A program made the translations under genes and the position numbers. Shown here piece by piece: positions 9,001 through 34,480 of a stretch of 64,000 bases of DNA. Positions within the stretch are counted from its first letter, which is position 1. Every line of letters starts with the position of its first letter. The notes under the pieces are model-generated. The model searched no databases, was not told the DNA's origin, and worked only from the letters and a program-made list of their open reading frames with translations. This DNA is from a virus: positions 10,220-74,219 of the IMG/VR virus record IMGVR_UViG_3300023179_000082. One strand, 5' to 3'.

Positions 9001-11295
9001 TGCTACTGAAGATAATTTAAACGTTGTTATACTTGGCGTAGATGTATCAATATCATAGATATAATATAGTTGATTATCTAAATCAAGCCATTCGCTAGGC
9101 CATGTATTAGGAATTTGTAAAACAACTGATTGACCCTCTACTAGCGTAACATTAAGAGCAGGATTTTCTATACCCACTAATTCTGAATTGTTAACTGTTA
9201 CAACTGCTGCACTTGCAGAAGAAAAGTTTGCAATAGTTGGTAAGGTAGGAATAATACCTTCTACGGTAGTAAACAAATCTACGGTAGCAGTATCAATATA
9301 GTCAACATCACCTAATGAGTTAATACCACTAGTAAATAATTTTAAATTAGGTACAAACTCAATAATTGGGCGTTTTGCTCTTGCTGAAGTTGATTCTAAA
9401 TCTTGTAAAGCACGTGCGCTTTTTGTATAATCATAGGTTGCTTGTAACACTTCATAATGAAACCAACGATTACTACGTGACCACGCATTGCGATCACGTG
9501 ATAAACGACTAATAGTGATATAATCTTGACTAATAGGTTGATTTAAAATTACATCATATCCTGTTGTATCATATGGTTCCATATCATATGGTACAAATAT
9601 TGGATCAGTATACAATTCAGGTGTACTTAAGTCTGTAGTAGGTATTAACTCAATTGCAGTGCCAACACCTTCAACATAATATTCACCTTCTTCATAAGCA
9701 ACAGGTATAACATTACCTTCAAACCTAACTTTTAAACCATTCGTGAAAACCACACCATTAGGACTAGTATAAGTTGATTTACCAACAATATCAGTGATAA
9801 AGATAGATGCATCTGCATTGCTATCAATAAGTTCTATAATACCTACACTATTCGGATCATTAGCATTTTGATAATATAATCGATTTAATTGTGCGCTAAG
9901 ATAAGGAATTAACTCAATTTGTCCTGCTAAATTTCTAAAGAATGAACGTGCTTGATATACTGTACCTAAGTTTACTGTAATTTTTTCCAATGTTGGAATA
10001 TTACTTTCTTCAACTAAGCGTATAATGATTGTTTGGTCAAAACCAATCTCTACAGGCGTAGTTACGCTTTGTGCAGGATCAGGATAACTTTCATCATAAC
10101 GTGGGTATGGTGCAGCATTATAACCTACTGTAACCGCAGGTGGAACAGGATAACGCTCATTTTCAAAGGTTAAAGTTGTAGATGTTGTTACGGTAACATT
10201 GTTACTTAAATATACGTTAGAATTAACTACATTTTCTACTACTGTGTTTGATGGTATACCGCTACCTGTCACAACCATACCTGGGTAGATATTTGCAATA
10301 TCATCCACGCCAATGATAGACACACTTGTATAAGTTCCATCAGGAGTGGTTGTTGCTGTTAGTACATTATTTGTATCATATACAATACGATAATATTTTA
10401 CTTGATTGGCAATGCTGTCAGGACCGTAAAACAGTATACTTTTACCATTTAAATCAGTAACTCCATCAATATTATAACCAATCTCAGCTAATGTTTTACC
10501 ATTTAAATCATCATAAGTGCCTGTATAGATGATGTCAACCGCATGGTTACCAGGCAAATCATACTGCGATTGTGCTATTTTAGATGGTACCGTAAATGTT
10601 ACAACACCTGTAGATGCGCCATTGTTCGTAACACCAAGTATATCTCTTGTACTGATATTAGGATAATTAGGCAGTGTTCCTGTTACGCCTGGCACGCCTT
10701 GTATCCAAAATGGATCACTACCACTTGTAACAAAACGATAAGTGCCACCACGTAGCAATGTAATAATTGGGTTTTTCTGTTCAAAACTTGAAATTCTATA
10801 ACCATCACTAGAATCAAGTACGTTATATGTTCTACGATTGTATACAGTATCAGTTGATACTAGCACAGAATCAGGACCAAGCGGTAACCAATAGTATTGC
10901 TGATAGTTCAACAACATGTCATAGTTAATGTATGATTCCCAACTATAACTATCTTGTGTGAATAAATCTTGTGGGTTTAGGGTTAAATTGTTTGGTTGCT
11001 TAAGGGCATCGACAATACCTGGGTAGGAGATAAAGTCCTGTGGCTTTTGTGTATCAGGCTTTAAAAAGATAACCGCAGGTTCAAGCTGATAGTCAGTCCT
11101 GATTTTGTCAGGTTCGACAACATATTTGTCATTGCGATTAATGCCATAGCCAAATTTTTCGCCAATATAGCCTTGAACAGCAGTTACATTCTTTTGCTGA
11201 GTCAATTGCTCTAGCGTAGCAGACAAAAATTGTCTGTTAGTTTCAGTCCTGAATATTTCAGGCAAAAAGTCGATTGTGCGTACCTTGGTTACCAT
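1..11295 (-). CDS. Giant virion structural protein (baseplate-associated), 3' end truncated by the window edge; >3,765 aa; contains FG-GAP-like beta-propeller repeats
   Basis: ATG at 11295 gives MVTKVRTIDFLPEIFRTETNRQFLSATLEQL. The same frame reads as protein at spot checks near 3050 (QFGYHVVMNESSSIAIGAP) and at position 1 (IRLDRTSYRSTITSWDGANT). It is absent from the ORF track, consistent with no stop inside the window. It follows the gp6-like gene and has CTAAATA upstream (11321-11327). Not every codon was checked. Confidence 0.85.
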   Translation of the reverse strand, partial: MVTKVRTIDFLPEIFRTETNRQFLSATLEQLTQQKNVTAVQGYIGEKFGYGINRNDKYVVEPDKIRTDYQLEPAVIFLKPDTQKPQDFISYPGIVDALKQPNNLTLNPQDLFTQDSYSWESYINYDMLLNYQQYYWLPLGPDSVLVSTDTVYNRRTYNVLDSSDGYRISSFEQKNPIITLLRGGTYRFVTSGSDPFWIQGVPGVTGTLPNYPNISTRDILGVTNNGASTGVVTFTVPSKIAQSQYDLPGNHAVDIIYTGTYDDLNGKTLAEIGYNIDGVTDLNGKSILFYGPDSIANQVKYYRIVYDTNNVLTATTTPDGTYTSVSIIGVDDIANIYPGMVVTGSGIPSNTVVENVVNSNVYLSNNVTVTTSTTLTFENERYPVPPAVTVGYNAAPYPRYDESYPDPAQSVTTPVEIGFDQTIIIRLVEESNIPTLEKITVNLGTVYQARSFFRNLAGQIELIPYLSAQLNRLYYQNANDPNSVGIIELIDSNADASIFITDIVGKSTYTSPNGVVFTNGLKVRFEGNVIPVAYEEGEYYVEGVGTAIELIPTTDLSTPELYTDPIFVPYDMEPYDTTGYDVILNQPISQDYITISRLSRDRNAWSRSNRWFHYEVLQATYDYTKSARALQDLESTSARAKRPIIEFVPNLKLFTSGINSLGDVDYIDTATVDLFTTVEGIIPTLPTIANFSSASAAVVTVNNSELVGIENPALNVTLVEGQSVVLQIPNTWPSEWLDLDNQLYYIYDIDTSTPSITTFKLSSVADISSPEPLDTQGYTPPSVGTAYASFGNYVIDGQTVFDGARIIVSNDTDSSVRNKIYYATFVQIDTSGTTVASFVQDTDVAVEDLSQAIITRGDDSYNHVGRTFYYDLELFSGTGGWQQSQLKTGTNQAPLFDVLNENGVSLSNTSSYPASTFAGSKLFSYTPNPDGPDDPVLGFPIQYTSIENTSDINFTVNFNTDTFSYTSGTTTVSELINTGYVNQYIIPTIPTKRIGWVNSVEQSVQYQVFSFTSSAFNTANNVTTVICEIPAQPDTGWNPVKVYLNNRYLKSNQFSYTVTSTETIITVPNVEYDLPIVVELLSPEISSNAYFTVPTNLENNPFNVNPTTLDLGGIRNHWISICENSGLVTGNFVGNNNSRDLPNLSEYGNKIVQNSAPLLLTGLFLRKPGYNVLDALTFNSNEYTNYKQLIVDTAYQLDFSPYDTPSYILDTIVQRLVQAKAETVPFFWSDMFYSGDAYITNNYSFRNSASTASYTLSQIYNFTSANYDGLGIYVTRQIDGYAREIQLLRNVNWVTSTTSPSVTITFDFLAGDVVTIKEYNQTWGTFCPNTPSKLGMYPAFVPQVLLDNSYTTPTYFIIGHDGSYTKLYGTYVNGRLTDPRDIALFEFENRVWNNIKVTQDIPIVTADIVPGQFRTTAYSDEEVLQVTTPSFLNWIGKNRLNYRTNFYRADNAFTYNYRGSTIEIDNSLVKQGYWRGLYKWLYDTDTPHITPWQMLGFAARPSWWISYYGDAPYTSDNTVLWTDLANGFVWNNGNSYTLTKYQRPQLLNIIPVDSSGNLVPPLSVVIGFYNSIDFRRDWLPGDDSPTEASYEKSSTYPFDLMRLFVLTKPAKFFGLMVDRDLYRFNTEIAQWLYNDRYHINPNDIVVYGDGTPKHSYINWVVDYLNQRGTSSTTDVQTAIQNLDVRLVYRVGGFTAKKFLSFLVEKASTNSTNTGLLIPAESYNILLYDNVPSDKITWSTVIVQKTANGYTVWGNSLTQSFFRCALPINNNYKEIISYDKYRVTVSAEFNKTETYLVPYGTEFYSLEGVAEFLVRYGAHLKNQGMQFINNYDGIEYNWSQMVAEFLYWQSQKWSVGSLINLNPNSQKLTVNRENFIVQPLTLQQSNFVLDQNMVPIKPTNMLVNRDGTLFELQVKNVGDTLAYSIFNMSNIEHAIVFDNVTLFNDVIYNVSIGLRQERILMKGYVTAEWDGYVDAQGFLLNQNNIVEWQSNIKYTKGQIVKYKDKYWVAATIIEPNANFNQEQWIASDYQDVQEGLLANPSTEAAEALNFYNTNVAALNPDTDLLSFSLIGFRPRNYMAAADLSTISQVNIYKNFIKEKGTNIIASAFKRAEFAQGQIDYDIYENWGIQSGEFGAVNSSNFVETLLIEADLNSNPTIIGFTDANITSVNGAQQTTNIDELINWDRKPYTADFLPPMVDNYTVQAGIPTAGYVNYDDVKTTSYNYFGLNDDSNTVQNMYYGDYIWLADYLSTWNVSTPISVGAVVVLMQNNLNGTCTLTYDRPHGLTKNQRFSVVGFDSNIDGYYTVNTKVSLNSVLINKLLPNNIRTIEGIGISFKFQNHRVTQPSNASNFPIPNNEFARKKLWADEDGPQPDAQWAVYESIPVYQLTTLTSTAGTGQTGAVAYNATIGTVIAYSGYVRVFPLSGSPYNLASSASVTDIAVAGNYIFTVSGTNLRIYTAPSTAVTQTIVLSNAGSSIATSATGTVVYVGSSSTNNVYQYINTGASWVAGSTVTTPSASGSVGAVLGFGYSVACSNQGNKLFVSAPTSTISGITEAGVVYCFDYTGSAINLQQTIVNPAPHQGALYGHSVSTFQYGSDFIVGAPFNLQTVSGVNNVEGAVYRYTSSAQRYGTISGVVSASYPFSGTLYIDSDIITITAAANLAGIVSQINAGLTGAGRTAAATASGSTLTIAVDPLLVDTPLNILDISSNSVATLTALGLTPYTLTQTLFEPYKTDTAQFGYHVVMNESSSIAIGAPTATKHDRTTFDFSDNYLNDDTIFDWGATTFIDQWPLFGEVLVYDYLPAANENITNPGKYVFAEYTNDPTYNIGNYGLQPMYGSGGIAFRDSVITVTSPMWGTPDVGRVTQFTSSNQQTWNVIRAPLAAVNINKLEYISIYDTIDNTDLEYLDYIDPIQGKLFGALESNIDYITMKDPAGYGVNSPAWTKDMVGRIWFDPSNIRMVDTHQSVYGETSTPYSVYNAKHWGQPFVGSLPLVYRWTESTVDPLNYAGPGTPRNFDNYVTVTVQDNNTNSLVSLYYFWVENNPIIDTKIGKTLNTSTIASYILNPIGSGIAYLAPIGTNAVALYNTNTYIRANSSALHIGYSNNVNFDNKHVEFNLIKQNDPFDFLNGIPNIRRVGQQDPQGLYLKYINSFAGRDILAQPVPDTNLPLLVRYGTSNVYRQSMFRDRTLALENYITYVNNVLINYPVTESRVMTFLNESGTGWDTTDFWSYENYWVSGYSNATKAQVQVQSVPELAAVTAREGLVARVSVTSTSGNAVFYAYLNNEWVLIGIENGTIQFSSTLYTNTDLNEVSLPIRYVIRAINEQIFIGDLQIERNRSLVLMFNYIMSEAQQRKNYLPWLNKTSLIDVSHTIRELIPYEKFQRDNQEFLSGYLNEVKPYHVVIKDFSFRYVGTEIFEGDITDFDVPSRYVQSLANYESPILVYELTQAQDNEYLPSNPIWTTSEYVNWYNNYGLSIDQSEAENVSIAVLRRFVSLDATSIFVSNAYGMPAIGYIQIDDEIIGYNFVDYYRGRLAGLSRARFGTTIATHNPNTEVLLSFDPVTIIETGRAYANPPTIDAVIDLAQFPEPRTEAQLTPIMANDRVIGIQVDDSGSGYAQQPEILIQPAFEETFNANAFGVGTNRINLTAATNFISGDCVRYRVEEGSTPPLGLTDGAYYYVRVNIASNSLFLFNNKAAALARQGDVNYNDDPVMIYGNAVGNGHVFGETARAVAFTTSRPTRELRTTIRLDRTSYRSTITSWDGANT

Positions 11296-29592: not shown

Positions 29593-30043
29593 TAGGTTTG
29601 GTTGCATGACCTGTAACGCAACGTAGGTACACTAATTAAAGTTGGTTAATGCCTTGGCTGAGTTCTACAGCAGCTTCAATAGACTATCCCCAAGACCCAT
29701 GTGGTTGTAAGGACGCTATAAACGGATGCCCATTGGTAGTCACGTTTCTATTGTCGTAATAGTTGAATCTACTGTAAAGTAGGTTAGGGTAAAAAGTATT
29801 TTTTATCAAGTGCTCGATCATAATAATAGTGGAAAAGGGTCGAGACTGTGTTAATAGCTAACTCACTGAGGTTATTAACGTTACAGTGTATGCGGTGTGT
29901 TTCTTGTACAAACAAGTTTTGGGGTGATATAGTCAAACCTACCTGAATAAAATGCACGAAGTGAGCACCTTCTACGAGAGTGGGCGGGGAAGAAGAACCA
30001 AATGTGTGGATTATTGCAACTGTAAAAAGTTACATTTATCCAC
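29593..30043 (+). ncRNA. Candidate large structured non-coding RNA (family unknown)
   Basis: No ORF of 60 aa or more in the track. It contains many helices whose non-Watson-Crick pairs are mostly G-U on the + strand, GNRA tetraloops (GUAA 29774-29777, GAGA 29976-29979) and long-range pairings (29682-29696 with 29916-29934, or 29593-29604 with 29930-29941). Boundaries are approximate. Confidence 0.55.
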
Positions 30044-30134
30044 CTTTTTGCAAAAAAGATAAACGGAAAAATAATAATAAAAAAAAATATGAGTGTACGT
30101 GGCTGAAGCGATAGCGTAAGCTTAGTACACGAAT

Positions 30135-30153
30135 AGATGACCTTTGGTCATCT
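30135..30153. terminator. Perfect hairpin AGATGACC-TTT-GGTCATCT at the point of convergent transcription
   Basis: 8-bp inverted repeat abutting the stop codon of the minus-strand gene 30153..30380. No long U-tract is adjacent, so a terminator role is tentative. Confidence 0.45.
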
Positions 30154-30380
30154 TAAAAGAATGGTAATCCACTTTTCTTAGTAACTTCTAGATTTTCATC
30201 AATTAACTTGTTAATAATATTAGTTTCAGTTGGTGAAAGATTCATAGCATCAACATATGATAATGAACCACGCATATACCATGCTGCTTTTAAAGCATTG
30301 CGTTTAATAATAGTAACTTCTTCTTCGTATCCTTTTACTAGCTTCTCTATATCATCTTGTGATAGATAGAGAAGCCTCAT
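30153..30380 (-). CDS. Small tail/hub assembly chaperone segment (gp51-like or lambda 'T'-like); probably also translated as a -1 frameshift extension of the upstream gene
   Basis: WYMRGSLSYVDAMNLSPTE motif, ATGA overlap with the upstream gene, no obvious SD, and position in the -1 frame right after a slippery heptamer. Confidence 0.7.
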   Translation of the reverse strand: MRLLYLSQDDIEKLVKGYEEEVTIIKRNALKAAWYMRGSLSYVDAMNLSPTETNIINKLIDENLEVTKKSGLPFF

Positions 30381-30389
30381 TCGAAAAAA
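30340..30389 (-). other. Putative programmed -1 ribosomal frameshift signal (U UUU UUC + 6-nt spacer + 10-11 bp hairpin)
   Basis: The minus strand reads GAT TTT TTC GAA TGA. The heptamer is 30389-30383 and the stem GCTTCTCTAT/ATAGAGAAGC spans 30375-30341. Confidence 0.7.
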
Positions 30390-31198
30390 TCGGTAACACT
30401 AAATGTTATAGTTTGATTATATTCGTGTTGGCAACTTACGCATTTAAATCGTAATGGTTTAGATTGACTACTTTCACGCAATTCTATATTGTGATCACGT
30501 ATTGTGTCATACATTTTCTTATCACAGTTTTGTAAAAAATCCAAGATAAAAGGTTGATTTGATACACTAGTTTCAGGTGTTCTAATATATTCTATATTTT
30601 TAGATAGAATTTTTTGTGTTAAGTTGTTCATACGTACTAGCAATTCACTAGCTGCTTTATTCTTAACCTCACCATCCTCATAATTTTCTAATTGTGCTAA
30701 ACCACGTTGTATTTCAAATTGTTCAGCACTAGCATTATTATTATCTTGGTAGGTAGTTGACCTAAACTTGATTGCTAAATCACCTACAACTAATTCAGTA
30801 TTATAGTCACCAACTTGAATAGTGCTTATTAATTTTGAAAGGTTAATACCATAACGATTACTATTTTTACATGCAGGACAATTTGTGTCTACGTCCATTT
30901 CATCACCGTTAGTGGCTATACGAATTGATATTAATACAGTTTCTAAGTCAGCATTAAGTAATAACCATGGATTTTTAATGGTTGGTACACAACTTTGAAT
31001 GATGGAGACTACTGCTGAACCATTATACAAAGCATCAGGTGTACGTGCAGTAATTTCATCATTTGCAGTCATTGGGTATACAGGAAGTTCACCTGTTGGT
31101 GGTAAATCTACGATTTCTGATGAATATTTGTAGTTGCTAGGTAAACGTATATGTATAGCAGGTCTGCGAAAATACTGCTTAAGTGGGTTGTTTTCCAT
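30377..31198 (-). CDS. Baseplate hub / tail assembly chaperone (T4 gp26-like) with two CxxC motifs
   Basis: MENNPLKQYFRRP...LPS...YPMTANDEI...ISIRIATNG...CPAC...CVSC...TDFF resembles gp26-family proteins. Start is ATG 31198 with SD GGAGA. It sits divergent from the tape measure gene. Confidence 0.7.
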   Translation of the reverse strand: MENNPLKQYFRRPAIHIRLPSNYKYSSEIVDLPPTGELPVYPMTANDEITARTPDALYNGSAVVSIIQSCVPTIKNPWLLLNADLETVLISIRIATNGDEMDVDTNCPACKNSNRYGINLSKLISTIQVGDYNTELVVGDLAIKFRSTTYQDNNNASAEQFEIQRGLAQLENYEDGEVKNKAASELLVRMNNLTQKILSKNIEYIRTPETSVSNQPFILDFLQNCDKKMYDTIRDHNIELRESSQSKPLRFKCVSCQHEYNQTITFSVTDFFE

Positions 31199-31267: not shown

Positions 31268-34200
31268 ATGGCAGACCAACTTGATCCTGAATTAATGCGT
31301 CAGCTCAATGATAAATTCACTGAGTTATCAAATTCTATTACTACGATTGGCACTATTTCAGCCAAATCAATGAAATCAGTGGAGGACAATACTCAAAAAG
31401 TTGACAAAAATACATCATCTACTGAAGATAATACTAAAGCAACGGATGAAAATACTAGTTCAATCAAGCGTAATACTACTGCAGTAAACAGTCAGTTAAA
31501 GACTACGGAAAAAAATACTCAAGCATCTTCTGATCAAACTGATGTTATTAAAGAAGCTAATAATGCTATAAAAAATCAAGCACAAGCGGTTGGTGCTAGT
31601 AAAAAAACATTTGATGATTTAACAAAAGCCACTAATCAGCAATTTAAATCATATATGGCAACTGAGGTTGCAAAAGAGCAAATAAGTGGTGCATCAGCAA
31701 AAGCTCAGCAAGAATTAAATTCTAGACTAAAACTATCAAGCATTGGAATGGAAGTATTCCAAACAGGCGTAGAGGGTGTTAAGAAAGTTTTTGATGCTGC
31801 GATTGATGCGCAAATGAACTATACTAAAGCTTTGTTGCAGGGTACACGTGGTTTAGGTTTGGAAGCGCAGCGTAGAGAAACTGAAGGCAAAGCTGTAAAC
31901 CAAGTTATACGTGATTTTGGCAACTTAAGTATGTCGATTGGTGGATTGATGGTGGCGTTAGGACCGTTTGGTATAATTGGTCGTATTGTAGGTTTGGTTG
32001 GAGTAGGTGTTGGTATTTTGGCACAGTATGAAGCAAAAGCACGAGATTTTGCTTTGGAAGTGGCTACTATTACTGAACAGTTAAAAGATAAACTGTTTGA
32101 TACTTTCAAAGATTTAAGTAATTCTGCTTTAACTACTGCAGGAGGTATGACCACATTACGTGCTCAAATGAAGAAGTTTGATTTTGCTATGGCTGAAGTT
32201 GGTCAATTTGCAGCCGTAATAAAAGGTGCGGGTAAAGAGTTATCACAAATTGGTGGTTCTACAGTTAAAGGTTTAGAAAACTTTGTTGAAACTGCTGCAG
32301 ATTTGTTTGAAAGTCAACTTGGTAAAGAGTTGCAATACATGGGCTTGGATCGTGAAGAACAAATGAAAGGAACATTAAAGTTCTTAAGTTTACAAGCTAG
32401 ATTAGGTGTTCAACAAGAAAAAGACATTAAAAAGTTATCACAATCAGCAGGAAAATACATATCAGAATTAGACCAATTAGCTACGCTAACAGGTATAACA
32501 CGTCAAGAACAAGAACAAGCACGTGAACAAGTTATGGCAATTGAGGAATTACGTGCTGCTTTAGTGGAAGAAACTGCAAAAGGTGCTGCTGCAGATAAAG
32601 GTCGCTTAAAAGTATTAGAAGATGCCATACAAGTATCTACTGTATTAACTGCAGAAGGCATGAAAGAAGCAGGTGCTTCATTAGCTAGAACAGTTGCTGC
32701 AGGTGGTGTAACAAGGGCTGAAGATGCTAAATTATTACAAACTGCACCACAATTTTTACAGAATATGATGCAAGGTGTGGGTAGTGTAACCGACAATTTA
32801 CAATTATTTGGTAAAGAATCTAAACAAACATTGACACAATTGTCAAGCGCAGTAAAAGTATCAGGTGATATTGGTAAGGAAATAGCAGCAGTTGACTACG
32901 CAAAATTATTTGATTTCATACCAAAAATAGATAAGATTGCAGAATTACAAAAACAATTCCCTGAGAAAACATTACCACAAATCGTAGATGAAATGCGTAA
33001 GGTAACCGATCCCGCTACTAAAGCAGTACAAGATTTAATAAATGCTCAAAGAAAAGACGCAATTGCAAAAGAAGAATCAGGTGGAGGAATAAAAGGGGCA
33101 GCGGATTTACTAAAGTCAGGTGCACAAATATTTGGTATAAATGTTGAAAATTTTGGAAAATATGTACGTCAATTATTAGGAATAAAAGACACTGCTAAGG
33201 TAGAAAAAACTGAAGCAACTAAAAAAGCAGAAGCTAAAGTAGAAGAAAAGAAAAAAATTACTGATATAGCCACTGAAAAAGCAACTGCTGCATCCATGGC
33301 TGAGGATCAAGCTAAGAAAGAATTAGCCGAACTATATAAAAAGGGTGACGTTGCAGGTGTCGAAGCTAAAAAAGTTGAAATACAAAAATTAACTGACGAG
33401 CGTATGAAAGCTGAACAAGAAATGATGGTTGCTTCACGTGATCAATCACAAGCTGCTTTAGAAGCTTCAAACCAACGTAAAAAAGATATACGAGAAGTAA
33501 ACCAACTTGATGATAAAATAAGATTTTATAAAGATTCAATTAATCTTAACAATATGAAAATTGATTCATTATCAAAAGACCAAGTTGAATTAAATATAGA
33601 ACTTAAAAAATCAACGGGATTTGCTAAATTAGAAAATGAAAATCGATTAAAACATCTTACTCGATTAAGAGAATTAGCAGAAAAAGAAGTAAAAGAAGCA
33701 GAAGAAAATATCAAAAAAAGTGAAGAACGTAAAAAAGAACTAGAAAAGAAAACGTCTACCGCTACCCCAACCCCTGCAGCATCTTCACAAGAACGTAAAG
33801 AATTTGTGGACAAAATGTATGCAACATTACTTGAGCAAGCTAAAAAACAAGGTGTTGCAAATCCTGAAGTTGTTGCTAGATTAGGTGTTGCTCAATCTGC
33901 TTTAGAAACAGGGTATGGTAAATCCACTGCAGGTGGTCAAAATTATTTTGGTATTAAAGCAGGTAAAGGTCAGCCTAGTGTCACTGCGGAAACTGAAGAA
34001 TTTGATGCAGCCAAAGGTGTAATGGTCAAACAACAAGCTGCGTTTAAAAAATATAGTAGCATGGAAGAATCTGCTGCTGATTATATTAAATTCTTAAAAG
34101 AAAATCAGCGATATAAGGAAGTATTAGCAGCAAAAACACTTGACGAGGCTATTCTAGCACAAAGTATGTCAGGTTATGCTACTGATCCACGTTATGGACA

Positions 34201-34480
34201 AAAATTAGCAACTATTAACCAAAATATCGCACAAGAGCCAGGAAAAATGTTCGATGGTGGCGTAGTAACTAAACCGTTAACAACCACATTACGTGATGGT
34301 GGACAAGATGAAGCAGTTATTCCATTGAATAAGTTAGCAGATTTAATACCTATAAAGTCATTAGTTGATGCTATAGAACGTCAAACAGCAATGTTAACCC
34401 AAGGTTTTGAGAACATGACTGACAAATTAGCTGAAAATAATAGCATGGTAAGTGACCAATTATTGTACATGCAGAACTAA
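31268..34480 (+). CDS. Tape measure protein with C-terminal GH73 (FlgJ-like glucosaminidase/muramidase) domain
   Basis: Long helical Ala/Lys/Glu/Gln-rich body with a hydrophobic Gly-rich segment. The C-terminus has the GH73 motifs AQSALETGYG, NYFGIKA and GYATDPRY. Confidence 0.8.
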   Translation: MADQLDPELMRQLNDKFTELSNSITTIGTISAKSMKSVEDNTQKVDKNTSSTEDNTKATDENTSSIKRNTTAVNSQLKTTEKNTQASSDQTDVIKEANNAIKNQAQAVGASKKTFDDLTKATNQQFKSYMATEVAKEQISGASAKAQQELNSRLKLSSIGMEVFQTGVEGVKKVFDAAIDAQMNYTKALLQGTRGLGLEAQRRETEGKAVNQVIRDFGNLSMSIGGLMVALGPFGIIGRIVGLVGVGVGILAQYEAKARDFALEVATITEQLKDKLFDTFKDLSNSALTTAGGMTTLRAQMKKFDFAMAEVGQFAAVIKGAGKELSQIGGSTVKGLENFVETAADLFESQLGKELQYMGLDREEQMKGTLKFLSLQARLGVQQEKDIKKLSQSAGKYISELDQLATLTGITRQEQEQAREQVMAIEELRAALVEETAKGAAADKGRLKVLEDAIQVSTVLTAEGMKEAGASLARTVAAGGVTRAEDAKLLQTAPQFLQNMMQGVGSVTDNLQLFGKESKQTLTQLSSAVKVSGDIGKEIAAVDYAKLFDFIPKIDKIAELQKQFPEKTLPQIVDEMRKVTDPATKAVQDLINAQRKDAIAKEESGGGIKGAADLLKSGAQIFGINVENFGKYVRQLLGIKDTAKVEKTEATKKAEAKVEEKKKITDIATEKATAASMAEDQAKKELAELYKKGDVAGVEAKKVEIQKLTDERMKAEQEMMVASRDQSQAALEASNQRKKDIREVNQLDDKIRFYKDSINLNNMKIDSLSKDQVELNIELKKSTGFAKLENENRLKHLTRLRELAEKEVKEAEENIKKSEERKKELEKKTSTATPTPAASSQERKEFVDKMYATLLEQAKKQGVANPEVVARLGVAQSALETGYGKSTAGGQNYFGIKAGKGQPSVTAETEEFDAAKGVMVKQQAAFKKYSSMEESAADYIKFLKENQRYKEVLAAKTLDEAILAQSMSGYATDPRYGQKLATINQNIAQEPGKMFDGGVVTKPLTTTLRDGGQDEAVIPLNKLADLIPIKSLVDAIERQTAMLTQGFENMTDKLAENNSMVSDQLLYMQN

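Follow-up and report, generated by a model that had tools for sequence, protein, structure and literature searches.

Two overlapping reading frames on the minus strand of a phage genome raise the question of whether they encode two separate proteins or one protein made in two lengths. They lie in a stretch of 64,000 nucleotides (the window: positions 10,220 to 74,219 of IMG/VR record IMGVR_UViG_3300023179_000082) that comes from a 74-kb genome piece of an uncultured giant phage from fresh water. The first frame encodes a 273-amino-acid protein equivalent to gp26 of phage T4; T4 gp26 and gp51 are baseplate hub assembly chaperones (Leiman et al. 2010, PMC3004832). The second is a 75-amino-acid open reading frame (ORF). 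An initial annotation, made from the letters of the window alone, had proposed that a −1 ribosomal frameshift fuses the two, as in the G/GT tail assembly chaperones (TACs) of lambda-type phages. We examined this locus together with its relatives and conclude that a conserved programmed −1 frameshift at the site is very likely. The fusion is ascribed to a −1 frameshift because the slippery heptamer is invariant, a synonymous constraint acts ahead of it, start codons are missing from the downstream frame, homologues encoded in a single frame are colinear with the fusion, and a downstream hairpin co-varies. We also consider it quite likely that the locus as a whole represents a single gene of family PF12322, in which a programmed −1 slip yields a 273-amino-acid and a 348-amino-acid form with a G/GT-like function.

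The probable slip site and its reading frames

The gene for the short form occupies 31198..30377 on the minus strand, with its ATG at 31198 and its TGA at 30379-30377. Its 3' end reads ACC GAT TTT TTC GAA TGA and includes the heptamer T_TTT_TTC (30383..30389, minus strand), an X XXY YYZ sequence in phase with the zero frame (GAT TTT TTC). A −1 slip at the heptamer reads D-F-F-R-M-R-L-L-Y and continues into the ORF that ends at 30153. The −1 frame extension (30156..30383, minus strand; RMRLLYLSQDD...GLPFF) is 76 amino acids long and is closed by a TAA at 30153-30155; the predicted trans-frame product has 272 + 76 = 348 amino acids. The 75-amino-acid ORF lies inside this extension. Its own ATG overlaps the zero-frame stop (ATGA), and no Shine-Dalgarno sequence is evident ahead of it in the window. 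A predicted stimulatory RNA hairpin (30340..30376, minus strand) starts 6 nt (GAAUGA) 3' of the heptamer. The initial annotation had described an in-phase T TTT TTC, a 6-nt spacer followed by a 10-bp stem and a G-U pair, a slip product of about 348 amino acids, and a second ORF with no clear Shine-Dalgarno sequence, and each of these elements was recovered at the positions given above. Directly downstream of the extension stop is a gene-free stretch (29593-30153), where the terminator of the extension may lie.

In-phase heptamers are common by themselves. In the window, an in-phase XXXYYYZ was present within the final 60 nt of 9 of the 52 ORFs with at least 100 codons. Only the PF12322 gene had a −1 extension of at least 50 amino acids after such a heptamer (76 amino acids), the other eight ORFs having extensions of at most 17 amino acids. 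The significance of the site therefore rests on its conservation. The region from 30340 to 30389 was crossed without an indel by contigs of four independent metagenome runs (aquaculture, wastewater, estuary, and aquatic), and therefore the frame arrangement is not an assembly error.

The 273-amino-acid protein matches PF12322 'T4_baseplate' (E 5.8e-17, 62.5 bits versus a cut-off of 24.5) and phrog_150 'baseplate hub' (E 5.4e-17, profile positions 3-232 of 282). Its sequence includes two CxxC motifs (CPAC and CVSC) and a C-terminal DFFE, all in columns that are conserved in the family alignments. No significant PHROG or Pfam family was found for the 76-amino-acid extension of the window, nor did a blastn 'distant' comparison of the region with phage records give a match.

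Conservation of the heptamer and the −1 frame

The first sample comprised 23 relatives with 24-90% protein identity, taken from IMG/VR loci and from named phages (Phosso, PA5oct, 121Q, Serratia BF, RaK2, XacN1, Xoo-sp13, CBB, fHe-Yen9-04, and XbC2). An in-phase heptamer was found at the conserved ..FF motif in 23/23 of them; it was T_TTT_TTT in two Xanthomonas phages and T_TTT_TTC in all others. All 23 had a homologous −1 extension of 70-79 amino acids. A profile-guided scan of IMG/VR gave at least 596 loci, of which the best 80 were examined. The split arrangement was present in 74 of these 80, and TTTTTTCG stood at the junction in 74/74. Overall, the in-phase heptamer was scored automatically in 97 of 98 split loci. 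Locus L087, a candidate for a junction lacking the heptamer, was rejected as an artefact of the position at which the tblastn match ended; its junction also shows TTTTTTCG. The alignment of homologous gene pairs had been named in the initial annotation as the way to check the frameshift, and under this check both the phase of the heptamer and the −1 relationship of the homologous frames were retained.

The pattern of conservation was analyzed in 75 distinct junctions carrying the extension motif. The heptamer was TTTTTTC in 74 of these and TTTTTTT in one. The codon before it was GAT, AAT, AGT, ACT, CAT, GCT, or GGT, with T as the third base in 75/75. The residue before the heptamer thus varies (D, N, S, T, H, A, or G) despite the fixed T at the third base, and the T-ending codon is a synonymous-site constraint. 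Over all relatives, the distance between heptamer and zero-frame stop ranges from 9 to 39 nt, whereas the −1 frame remains open for 70-79 homologous residues. Across the 75 junctions, the stop is 9-36 nt downstream of the heptamer and the length of the extension is 76-79 amino acids. The same slip site and extension were found in S-RIM8, P-SSM7, S-PM2, Melnitz, Caulobacter Cr30, Stenotrophomonas Mendera, Vibrio VH7D (KVP40-like), Rhizobium RHph_N34 (where the heptamer is TTTTTTG), Cronobacter LPCS28, and Desulfovibrio phage 7757.

Three further phages have a different arrangement. Salmonella phage Mansal (Ackermannviridae; L123:1701-1883) and Vibrio phage K413 (L126:1542-1745) each have a homologue of the −1 extension (..MPWHL..), with the junctions GAG ATT TTC ATT TAA and TCA CTT TTC AAG TAA, respectively. 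Neither junction contains an X_XXY_YYZ heptamer, only U_UUC, and a reduced slip site or some other mechanism may operate in these lineages. In Campylobacter phage CP21, the PF12322 gene (L106:1342-2019) has neither slip site nor extension, and the next gene is at 2034-2726.

Start codons and in-frame homologues

If the two frames were separate genes, the 75-amino-acid protein would be made only by termination-reinitiation (ATGA coupling) or from a start of its own, and no fusion would be formed. The window, Phosso, and locus L006 indeed have an ATG overlapping or beside the stop, and GenBank records annotate separate small coding sequences, as the current 'gp51' mini-gene annotations assume. 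Most relatives, however, have no start codon near the junction. An ATG, GTG, or TTG was present within the first three extension codons in 6 of the 75 junctions, while in 45/75 the first start codon came at extension codon 11 or later. In 10 of the 75 junctions no start codon precedes the conserved WYMRG core, and the 73-codon extension ORF of PA5oct contains no ATG, GTG, or TTG anywhere. In Serratia BF and cyanophages (S-RIM8), residue conservation in the −1 frame begins at the heptamer, well upstream of the annotated ATG. The invariance of the heptamer and of the preceding NNT codon also speaks against separate genes, as do the existence of fused in-frame homologues and the rule for gene copy number (both below). 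Across the family, the downstream ORF is generally, as far as these comparisons of sequence can tell, not a separate gene, and we hold an arrangement of two genes without fusion to be extremely improbable.

When 1.84 billion representatives were searched with a profile of the extension, 449 relatives were returned. Among the top 150 of these, about 20 were single-ORF forms (319-351 amino acids), in which the extension is C-terminal to the gp26-like domain. In a joint alignment, these in-frame homologues were colinear and gap-free with the short form plus its extension. The zero-frame F307 and the −1 frame R308 fall on the conserved 'F-R-x-[KR]-L-[LI]' of the in-frame homologues, and the codon of R308 is CGN, the C of which is the Z of the heptamer. 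The gap-free alignment therefore places the shift between F and R. An AlphaFold model of one in-frame homologue was a single confident model (predicted local distance difference test, pLDDT, 92.8; predicted template modelling score, pTM, 0.89) with a helical extension (258-332). A locus search with the single protein P0096 gave no locus; the in-frame forms were found through IMG/VR instead.

The predicted downstream hairpin

The hairpin of the window consists of an 11-bp base helix, made of a G-U pair and GCUUCUCUAU/AUAGAGAAGC, plus a small inner stem. None of 200 dinucleotide shuffles was as stable as this hairpin, whose minimum free energy is −17.1 kcal/mol (z −3.84). Most relatives from lake phages have z values of −3 to −5. 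Hairpins at a distance of 5-7 nt 3' of the heptamer were also found in loci L008, L009, L011, and L016 (z −3.1 to −5.1), L018 (z −4.5), PA5oct (z −3.1), and XacN1 and Xoo-sp13 (z about −4.2). Over the 75 junctions, the median folding z was −1.75 and 43% of the values were below −2; about 60% of lineages had significant structure. The 5' arm keeps its place in the R-L-L codons, and the 3' arm differs by clade in sequence and even in position. The arm pairs by clade were GGCUUCU/AGAAGCU, GCCUAAUU/AGUUAGGC, and GGCUAACGA/UCGUUAGCC. A swap test was conducted on 83 sequences: the 5' segment paired with its own 3' region had a mean of −14.1 kcal/mol, versus −9.4 kcal/mol when paired with a foreign one, a difference that was reached in 0 of 10000 permutations. 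The two arms thus appear to co-vary.

The hairpin bears on a further explanation, by which RNA polymerase would add one U within the U6 run and the edited mRNA would give the same fusion protein. At the site, 6-7 T follow one another in a homopolymeric run, and the protein product would be identical, so that comparative protein evidence cannot separate transcriptional slippage from a ribosomal slip. The known slippage-prone runs of bacteria are longer than the run found here. A co-varying hairpin located 5-7 nt 3' of the heptamer, on the other hand, shows the classic arrangement of a stimulator of ribosomal frameshifting. Moreover, RHph_N34 has TTTTTTG and some clades have TTTTC only, which argues that the logic of tRNA re-pairing is kept rather than the length of the run. 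The DNA contigs were without length heterogeneity, though contigs are blind to RNA. We therefore regard transcriptional slippage as very improbable and a slip of the ribosome as the preferred explanation.

Herein, we describe how the ribosomal slip would proceed. Most ribosomes would read GAU UUU UUC GAA and stop at UGA, this zero-frame termination giving the 273-amino-acid short form. A fraction of the ribosomes would pause over U_UUU_UUC because of the hairpin 6 nt downstream. The two tRNA-Phe would then move back by one base and pair with UUU UUU, after which translation would go on with CGA AUG AGG..., yielding the 348-amino-acid long form with its 76-amino-acid helical C-terminal extension. 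The outcome would be an abundant short chaperone and a scarce extended chaperone, like lambda gpG/gpGT and T4 gp26/gp51.

Relation to T4 gp26 and gp51

T4 gp26 and gp51 both belong to PF12322 (E 9e-64 and 4e-52, respectively) and to phrog_150, and they align with each other at E 2e-6. Of the 282 positions of phrog_150, T4 gp26 covers 14-235 and T4 gp51 covers 13-280. The C-terminal part of T4 gp51 corresponds to phrog_634, 'baseplate hub assembly catalyst'. T4 gp26 ends with E-F-F-E-L-L-stop at the position of the slip site; its codons there are TTC TTT, no heptamer is present, and gene 25 follows. The gp26 gene of S-RIM8 ends with AGT TTT TTC GGA TAG, and its −1 frame is open over 64 codons, leading into the ORF that carries the gp51 annotation. 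This S-RIM8 extension matches phrog_634 'gp51' with E 9e-30, and the C-terminus of T4 gp51 aligns with cyanophage-type extensions. The extension of the window and the cyanophage-type extensions are alike in their position, their slip site, and their R-x-x-L-L start. By position, the window extension appears to correspond to the 'mini-gp51' of cyanophages and to the C-terminal region of T4 gp51. A weak match of gp51 residues 32-64 to the extension was rejected as spurious, the true counterpart being the gp51 C-terminus. The label of a gp26/gp51-type pair, given to the locus in the initial annotation, therefore fits the cyanophages, in which the −1 extension is the annotated gp51. It also fits T4, in which gp51 is a PF12322 protein with an in-frame extension and gp26 is its paralogue without one.

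The gp51 of cyanophages and vibriophages lacks the first ~200 residues and has ~20% of the full length, a feature that was left unexplained (Sullivan et al. 2010, PMC3037559). Like the extension of the window, this 'mini-gp51' is a small ORF right after gp26; it resembles the T4 gp51 C-terminus and lies in the −1 frame behind T_TTT_TTC. It differs in having been described as a separate gene, with no frameshift proposed (PMC3037559), and the window extension is of a more divergent (WYMRG) subtype. T4 gp26 (208 amino acids) and gp51 (249 amino acids) share with the window protein the assignment to PF12322 and phrog_150, gp51 carrying the extension (phrog_634) in frame, and their genes are adjacent and stand beside the hub and tape-measure cluster. 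In contrast to the window, T4 has two divergently transcribed paralogous genes without heptamer or frameshift, and the extension of its gp51 is shorter (about 50 amino acids) and weakly similar to that of the window.

The number of PF12322 copies per genome was determined by a six-frame search. A single copy was found in 9/9 complete slip-site genomes (S-RIM8, S-PM2, 121Q, PA5oct, Phosso, VH7D, LPCS28, RHph_N34, and Mendera), and a single copy was found in the window's own fragment. T4 has two copies (genes 26 and 51), and two adjacent copies were present in 5/5 IMG/VR contigs with an in-frame long form. Each adjacent pair consists of one long copy with the extension and one short copy that ends soon after the second CxxC. 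Either one slip-site gene or a long and short pair is what would be expected if both forms are required. T-even phages would reach the two forms by two paralogous genes, and some uncultured phages by the tandem pair. On the IMG/VR contig behind locus L029 (L111/L115; G005:11717-13198), both PF12322 matches lie in one 678-codon open frame, and the short and long paralogues may be fused there as one tandem protein.

A probable tail assembly chaperone role

The window gene is divergent from a tape-measure-like gene (31268..34480, plus strand; 1070 amino acids), which is followed by portal, prohead protease, and major head genes. The 1070-amino-acid protein has a coiled-coil and hydrophobic body with a glucosaminidase domain (PF01832) at residues 867-986, and its RaK2 counterpart is annotated as similar to tape measure protein. 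The divergence from the tape measure gene claimed in the initial annotation is therefore correct in orientation, with the neighbour as a putative tape measure. The order tail tube, gp26, extension, and large tape-measure-like gene was found in P-SSM7, RHph_N34, and LPCS28. In Cr30, the annotated tape measure gene is one small gene downstream of the gp26/extension pair.

A model of the N-terminal domain (window residues 1-135; pLDDT 88.6) was compared with 48161 PDB chains, of which only 23 reached Z ≥2. The best match was 3klu (YqbN; Z 6.0, 83 residues aligned), followed by 2ob9 (the HK97 tail assembly chaperone; Z 5.8, 80 of 104 residues aligned) and 3fgx (Z 5.0); all others had a Z of 3.3 or lower. 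The predicted similarity to the TAC fold is thus modest but specific. The full-length model had no PDB match, a VIA-wide structure search returned helical-hairpin matches only, and a PDB profile search by sequence returned nothing. In Pfam scans, no Phage_TAC family was matched by proteins P0001, P0002 (the 273-amino-acid short form), or P0096.

As far as the TACs of lambda (gpG/gpGT) and P2 (gpE/gpE+E') are described in PMC5009743, which cites Xu, Hendrix and Duda 2004, the PF12322 gene shares three features with them. The first is a −1 slip on X_XXY_YYZ shortly before the end of a small gene for an assembly protein, and the second is a pair of products with a common N-terminal part, the minor one being extended. 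The third is a location beside the (here putative) tape-measure gene, the cyanophage-type relatives having the order tube, G, T, and tape measure. A fourth likeness is that the best PDB matches of the N-terminal domain are themselves TACs (3klu and 2ob9). Unlike the lambda and P2 proteins, PF12322 proteins have no similarity to the Pfam TAC families, are 230-280 amino acids long rather than about 100-140, and contain two CxxC motifs, a helical middle part, and an extension of 56-79 amino acids. The divergence of the window gene from the tape-measure-like gene is also unlike the lambda and P2 arrangement. The claim that the pair is a G/GT equivalent gains support from the logic of two forms, the tape-measure-like neighbour, the gene order in cyanophage-type relatives, and the TAC-like fold of the N-terminal domain.

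Both forms would act on the complex of hub and tape measure during tail and baseplate-hub assembly, and neither would be a major component of the virion. The gp26-like protein of CBB was not among the 55 virion proteins detected by mass spectrometry, and that of PA5oct was not flagged as a virion protein, as expected for a chaperone. An alternative is a real frameshift whose two products are hub proteins with another role, structural or regulatory, the likeness to G/GT being only formal. The function of T4 gp26 is disputed, hub component versus chaperone (PMC3004832); this dispute favours such a role, as do the modest TAC fold match and the position of the window gene, which is divergent from the tape-measure-like gene and not upstream of it. 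However, T4 gp51 is required for hub assembly yet is absent from the particle, and the same source counts gp26 among the hub assembly chaperones (PMC3004832). The top structural matches are specifically TACs, the tube, gp26, extension, and large gene stand in that order in other lineages, and the protein was not detected in CBB virions. We consider a non-chaperone role unlikely, and infer that a G/GT-type chaperone is the best functional reading and a reasonably probable one.

Several observations weigh against a single slip-site gene with a chaperone function. The ATG of the window overlaps the stop, so a free 75-amino-acid product made by re-initiation is possible, and a run of six U could in principle support slippage by RNA polymerase. 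Compensatory changes in the stem, a check suggested in the initial annotation, were seen as co-variation of the arms in the swap test, but the stem is weak or absent in RaK2, CBB, BF, the 'CCCGCCUCC' lake clade, L010, and L014. The absence of convincing structure from the RaK2/CBB/BF group and one lake clade implies that the stimulator is not universal or takes another form there. The window-type extension is only weakly related to that of cyanophages and T4 gp51 (probability 22% and P 1e-3 in hhalign, in register), and comparisons of the extension and full-length profiles with the single T4 gp51 or S-RIM8 extension failed (hhalign probability 0.6-11%). The 1070-amino-acid neighbour is a tape measure only by presumption. 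The TAC fold match has a Z of about 6 (below 8), with a root-mean-square deviation of 4.4-4.7 Å and 6% identity, and a Foldseek search of the PDB with the full-length and N-domain models gave nothing at E ≤ 0.001.

A lake-phage clade (L034, L035, L044, L047, L073, and L092) has the junction ...TTTTTTCG.ACCCGCCTCC..., in which the heptamer is fully conserved. No hairpin was found in this clade in the 75 nt downstream of the junction.

Implications for T4-type phages

The G-T frameshift has been described as conserved in long-tailed phages 'except T4' (PMC5009743). In the non-subscription literature, we found no report of a frameshift for gp26/gp51, for RaK2, PA5oct, 121Q, GAP32, or Atu_ph07, or for cyanophage hub genes; this agrees with the initial annotation, whose author was not aware of such a description for T4-like baseplate chaperones. 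On balance, we favour a joint reading in which PF12322 proteins would be the missing G/GT homologues of the T4 superfamily and the T_TTT_TTC slip would be ancestral. It would have been kept in cyanophages, KVP40-like phages, Cr30, jumbo phages of the RaK2, PA5oct, and Atu_ph07 types, and hundreds of uncultured lineages. In T-even phages, a duplication would have replaced the slip, with gp26 as 'G' and gp51 as 'GT'. If true, this reading would explain both the 'catalytic' need for T4 gp51 and the 'mini-gp51' genes of marine phages.

T4-type phages thus seem not to be an exception to the tail-chaperone frameshift of long-tailed phages. The logic of two products, from which the textbook statement exempts T4 (PMC5009743), is suggested to hold for T4-type phages too, in most of their lineages through a frameshift and in T4 itself through a pair of paralogous genes. 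A concrete hypothesis is thereby offered for gp26 and gp51, two classic T4 genes whose function is unclear. It would also account for the shortened 'gp51' that cyanophages and vibriophages have (PMC3037559), the frameshift supplying the missing N-terminal part. The family also constitutes a large natural series, in which one slippery site is combined with diverse co-varying stimulatory hairpins.

Annotation of the family in phage records

The long product is missing from many phage genome records, and the extension ORF is wholly missing from some. It is unannotated in the records of PA5oct (L002:3337-3555), RaK2 (L019:2328-2540), VH7D (L122:1725-1895), and LPCS28 (L125:1605-1775); other records begin the extension ORF at an internal ATG. 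In cyanophages, the large genes that follow gp51 and correspond to the tape-measure-like gene of the window are labelled 'endolysin'. The gp26-like gene of Yersinia phage fHe-Yen9-04 (L023:1489-2364) is labelled 'Lead, cadmium, zinc and mercury transporting ATPase', which is probably a mis-annotation set off by the CxxC motifs.

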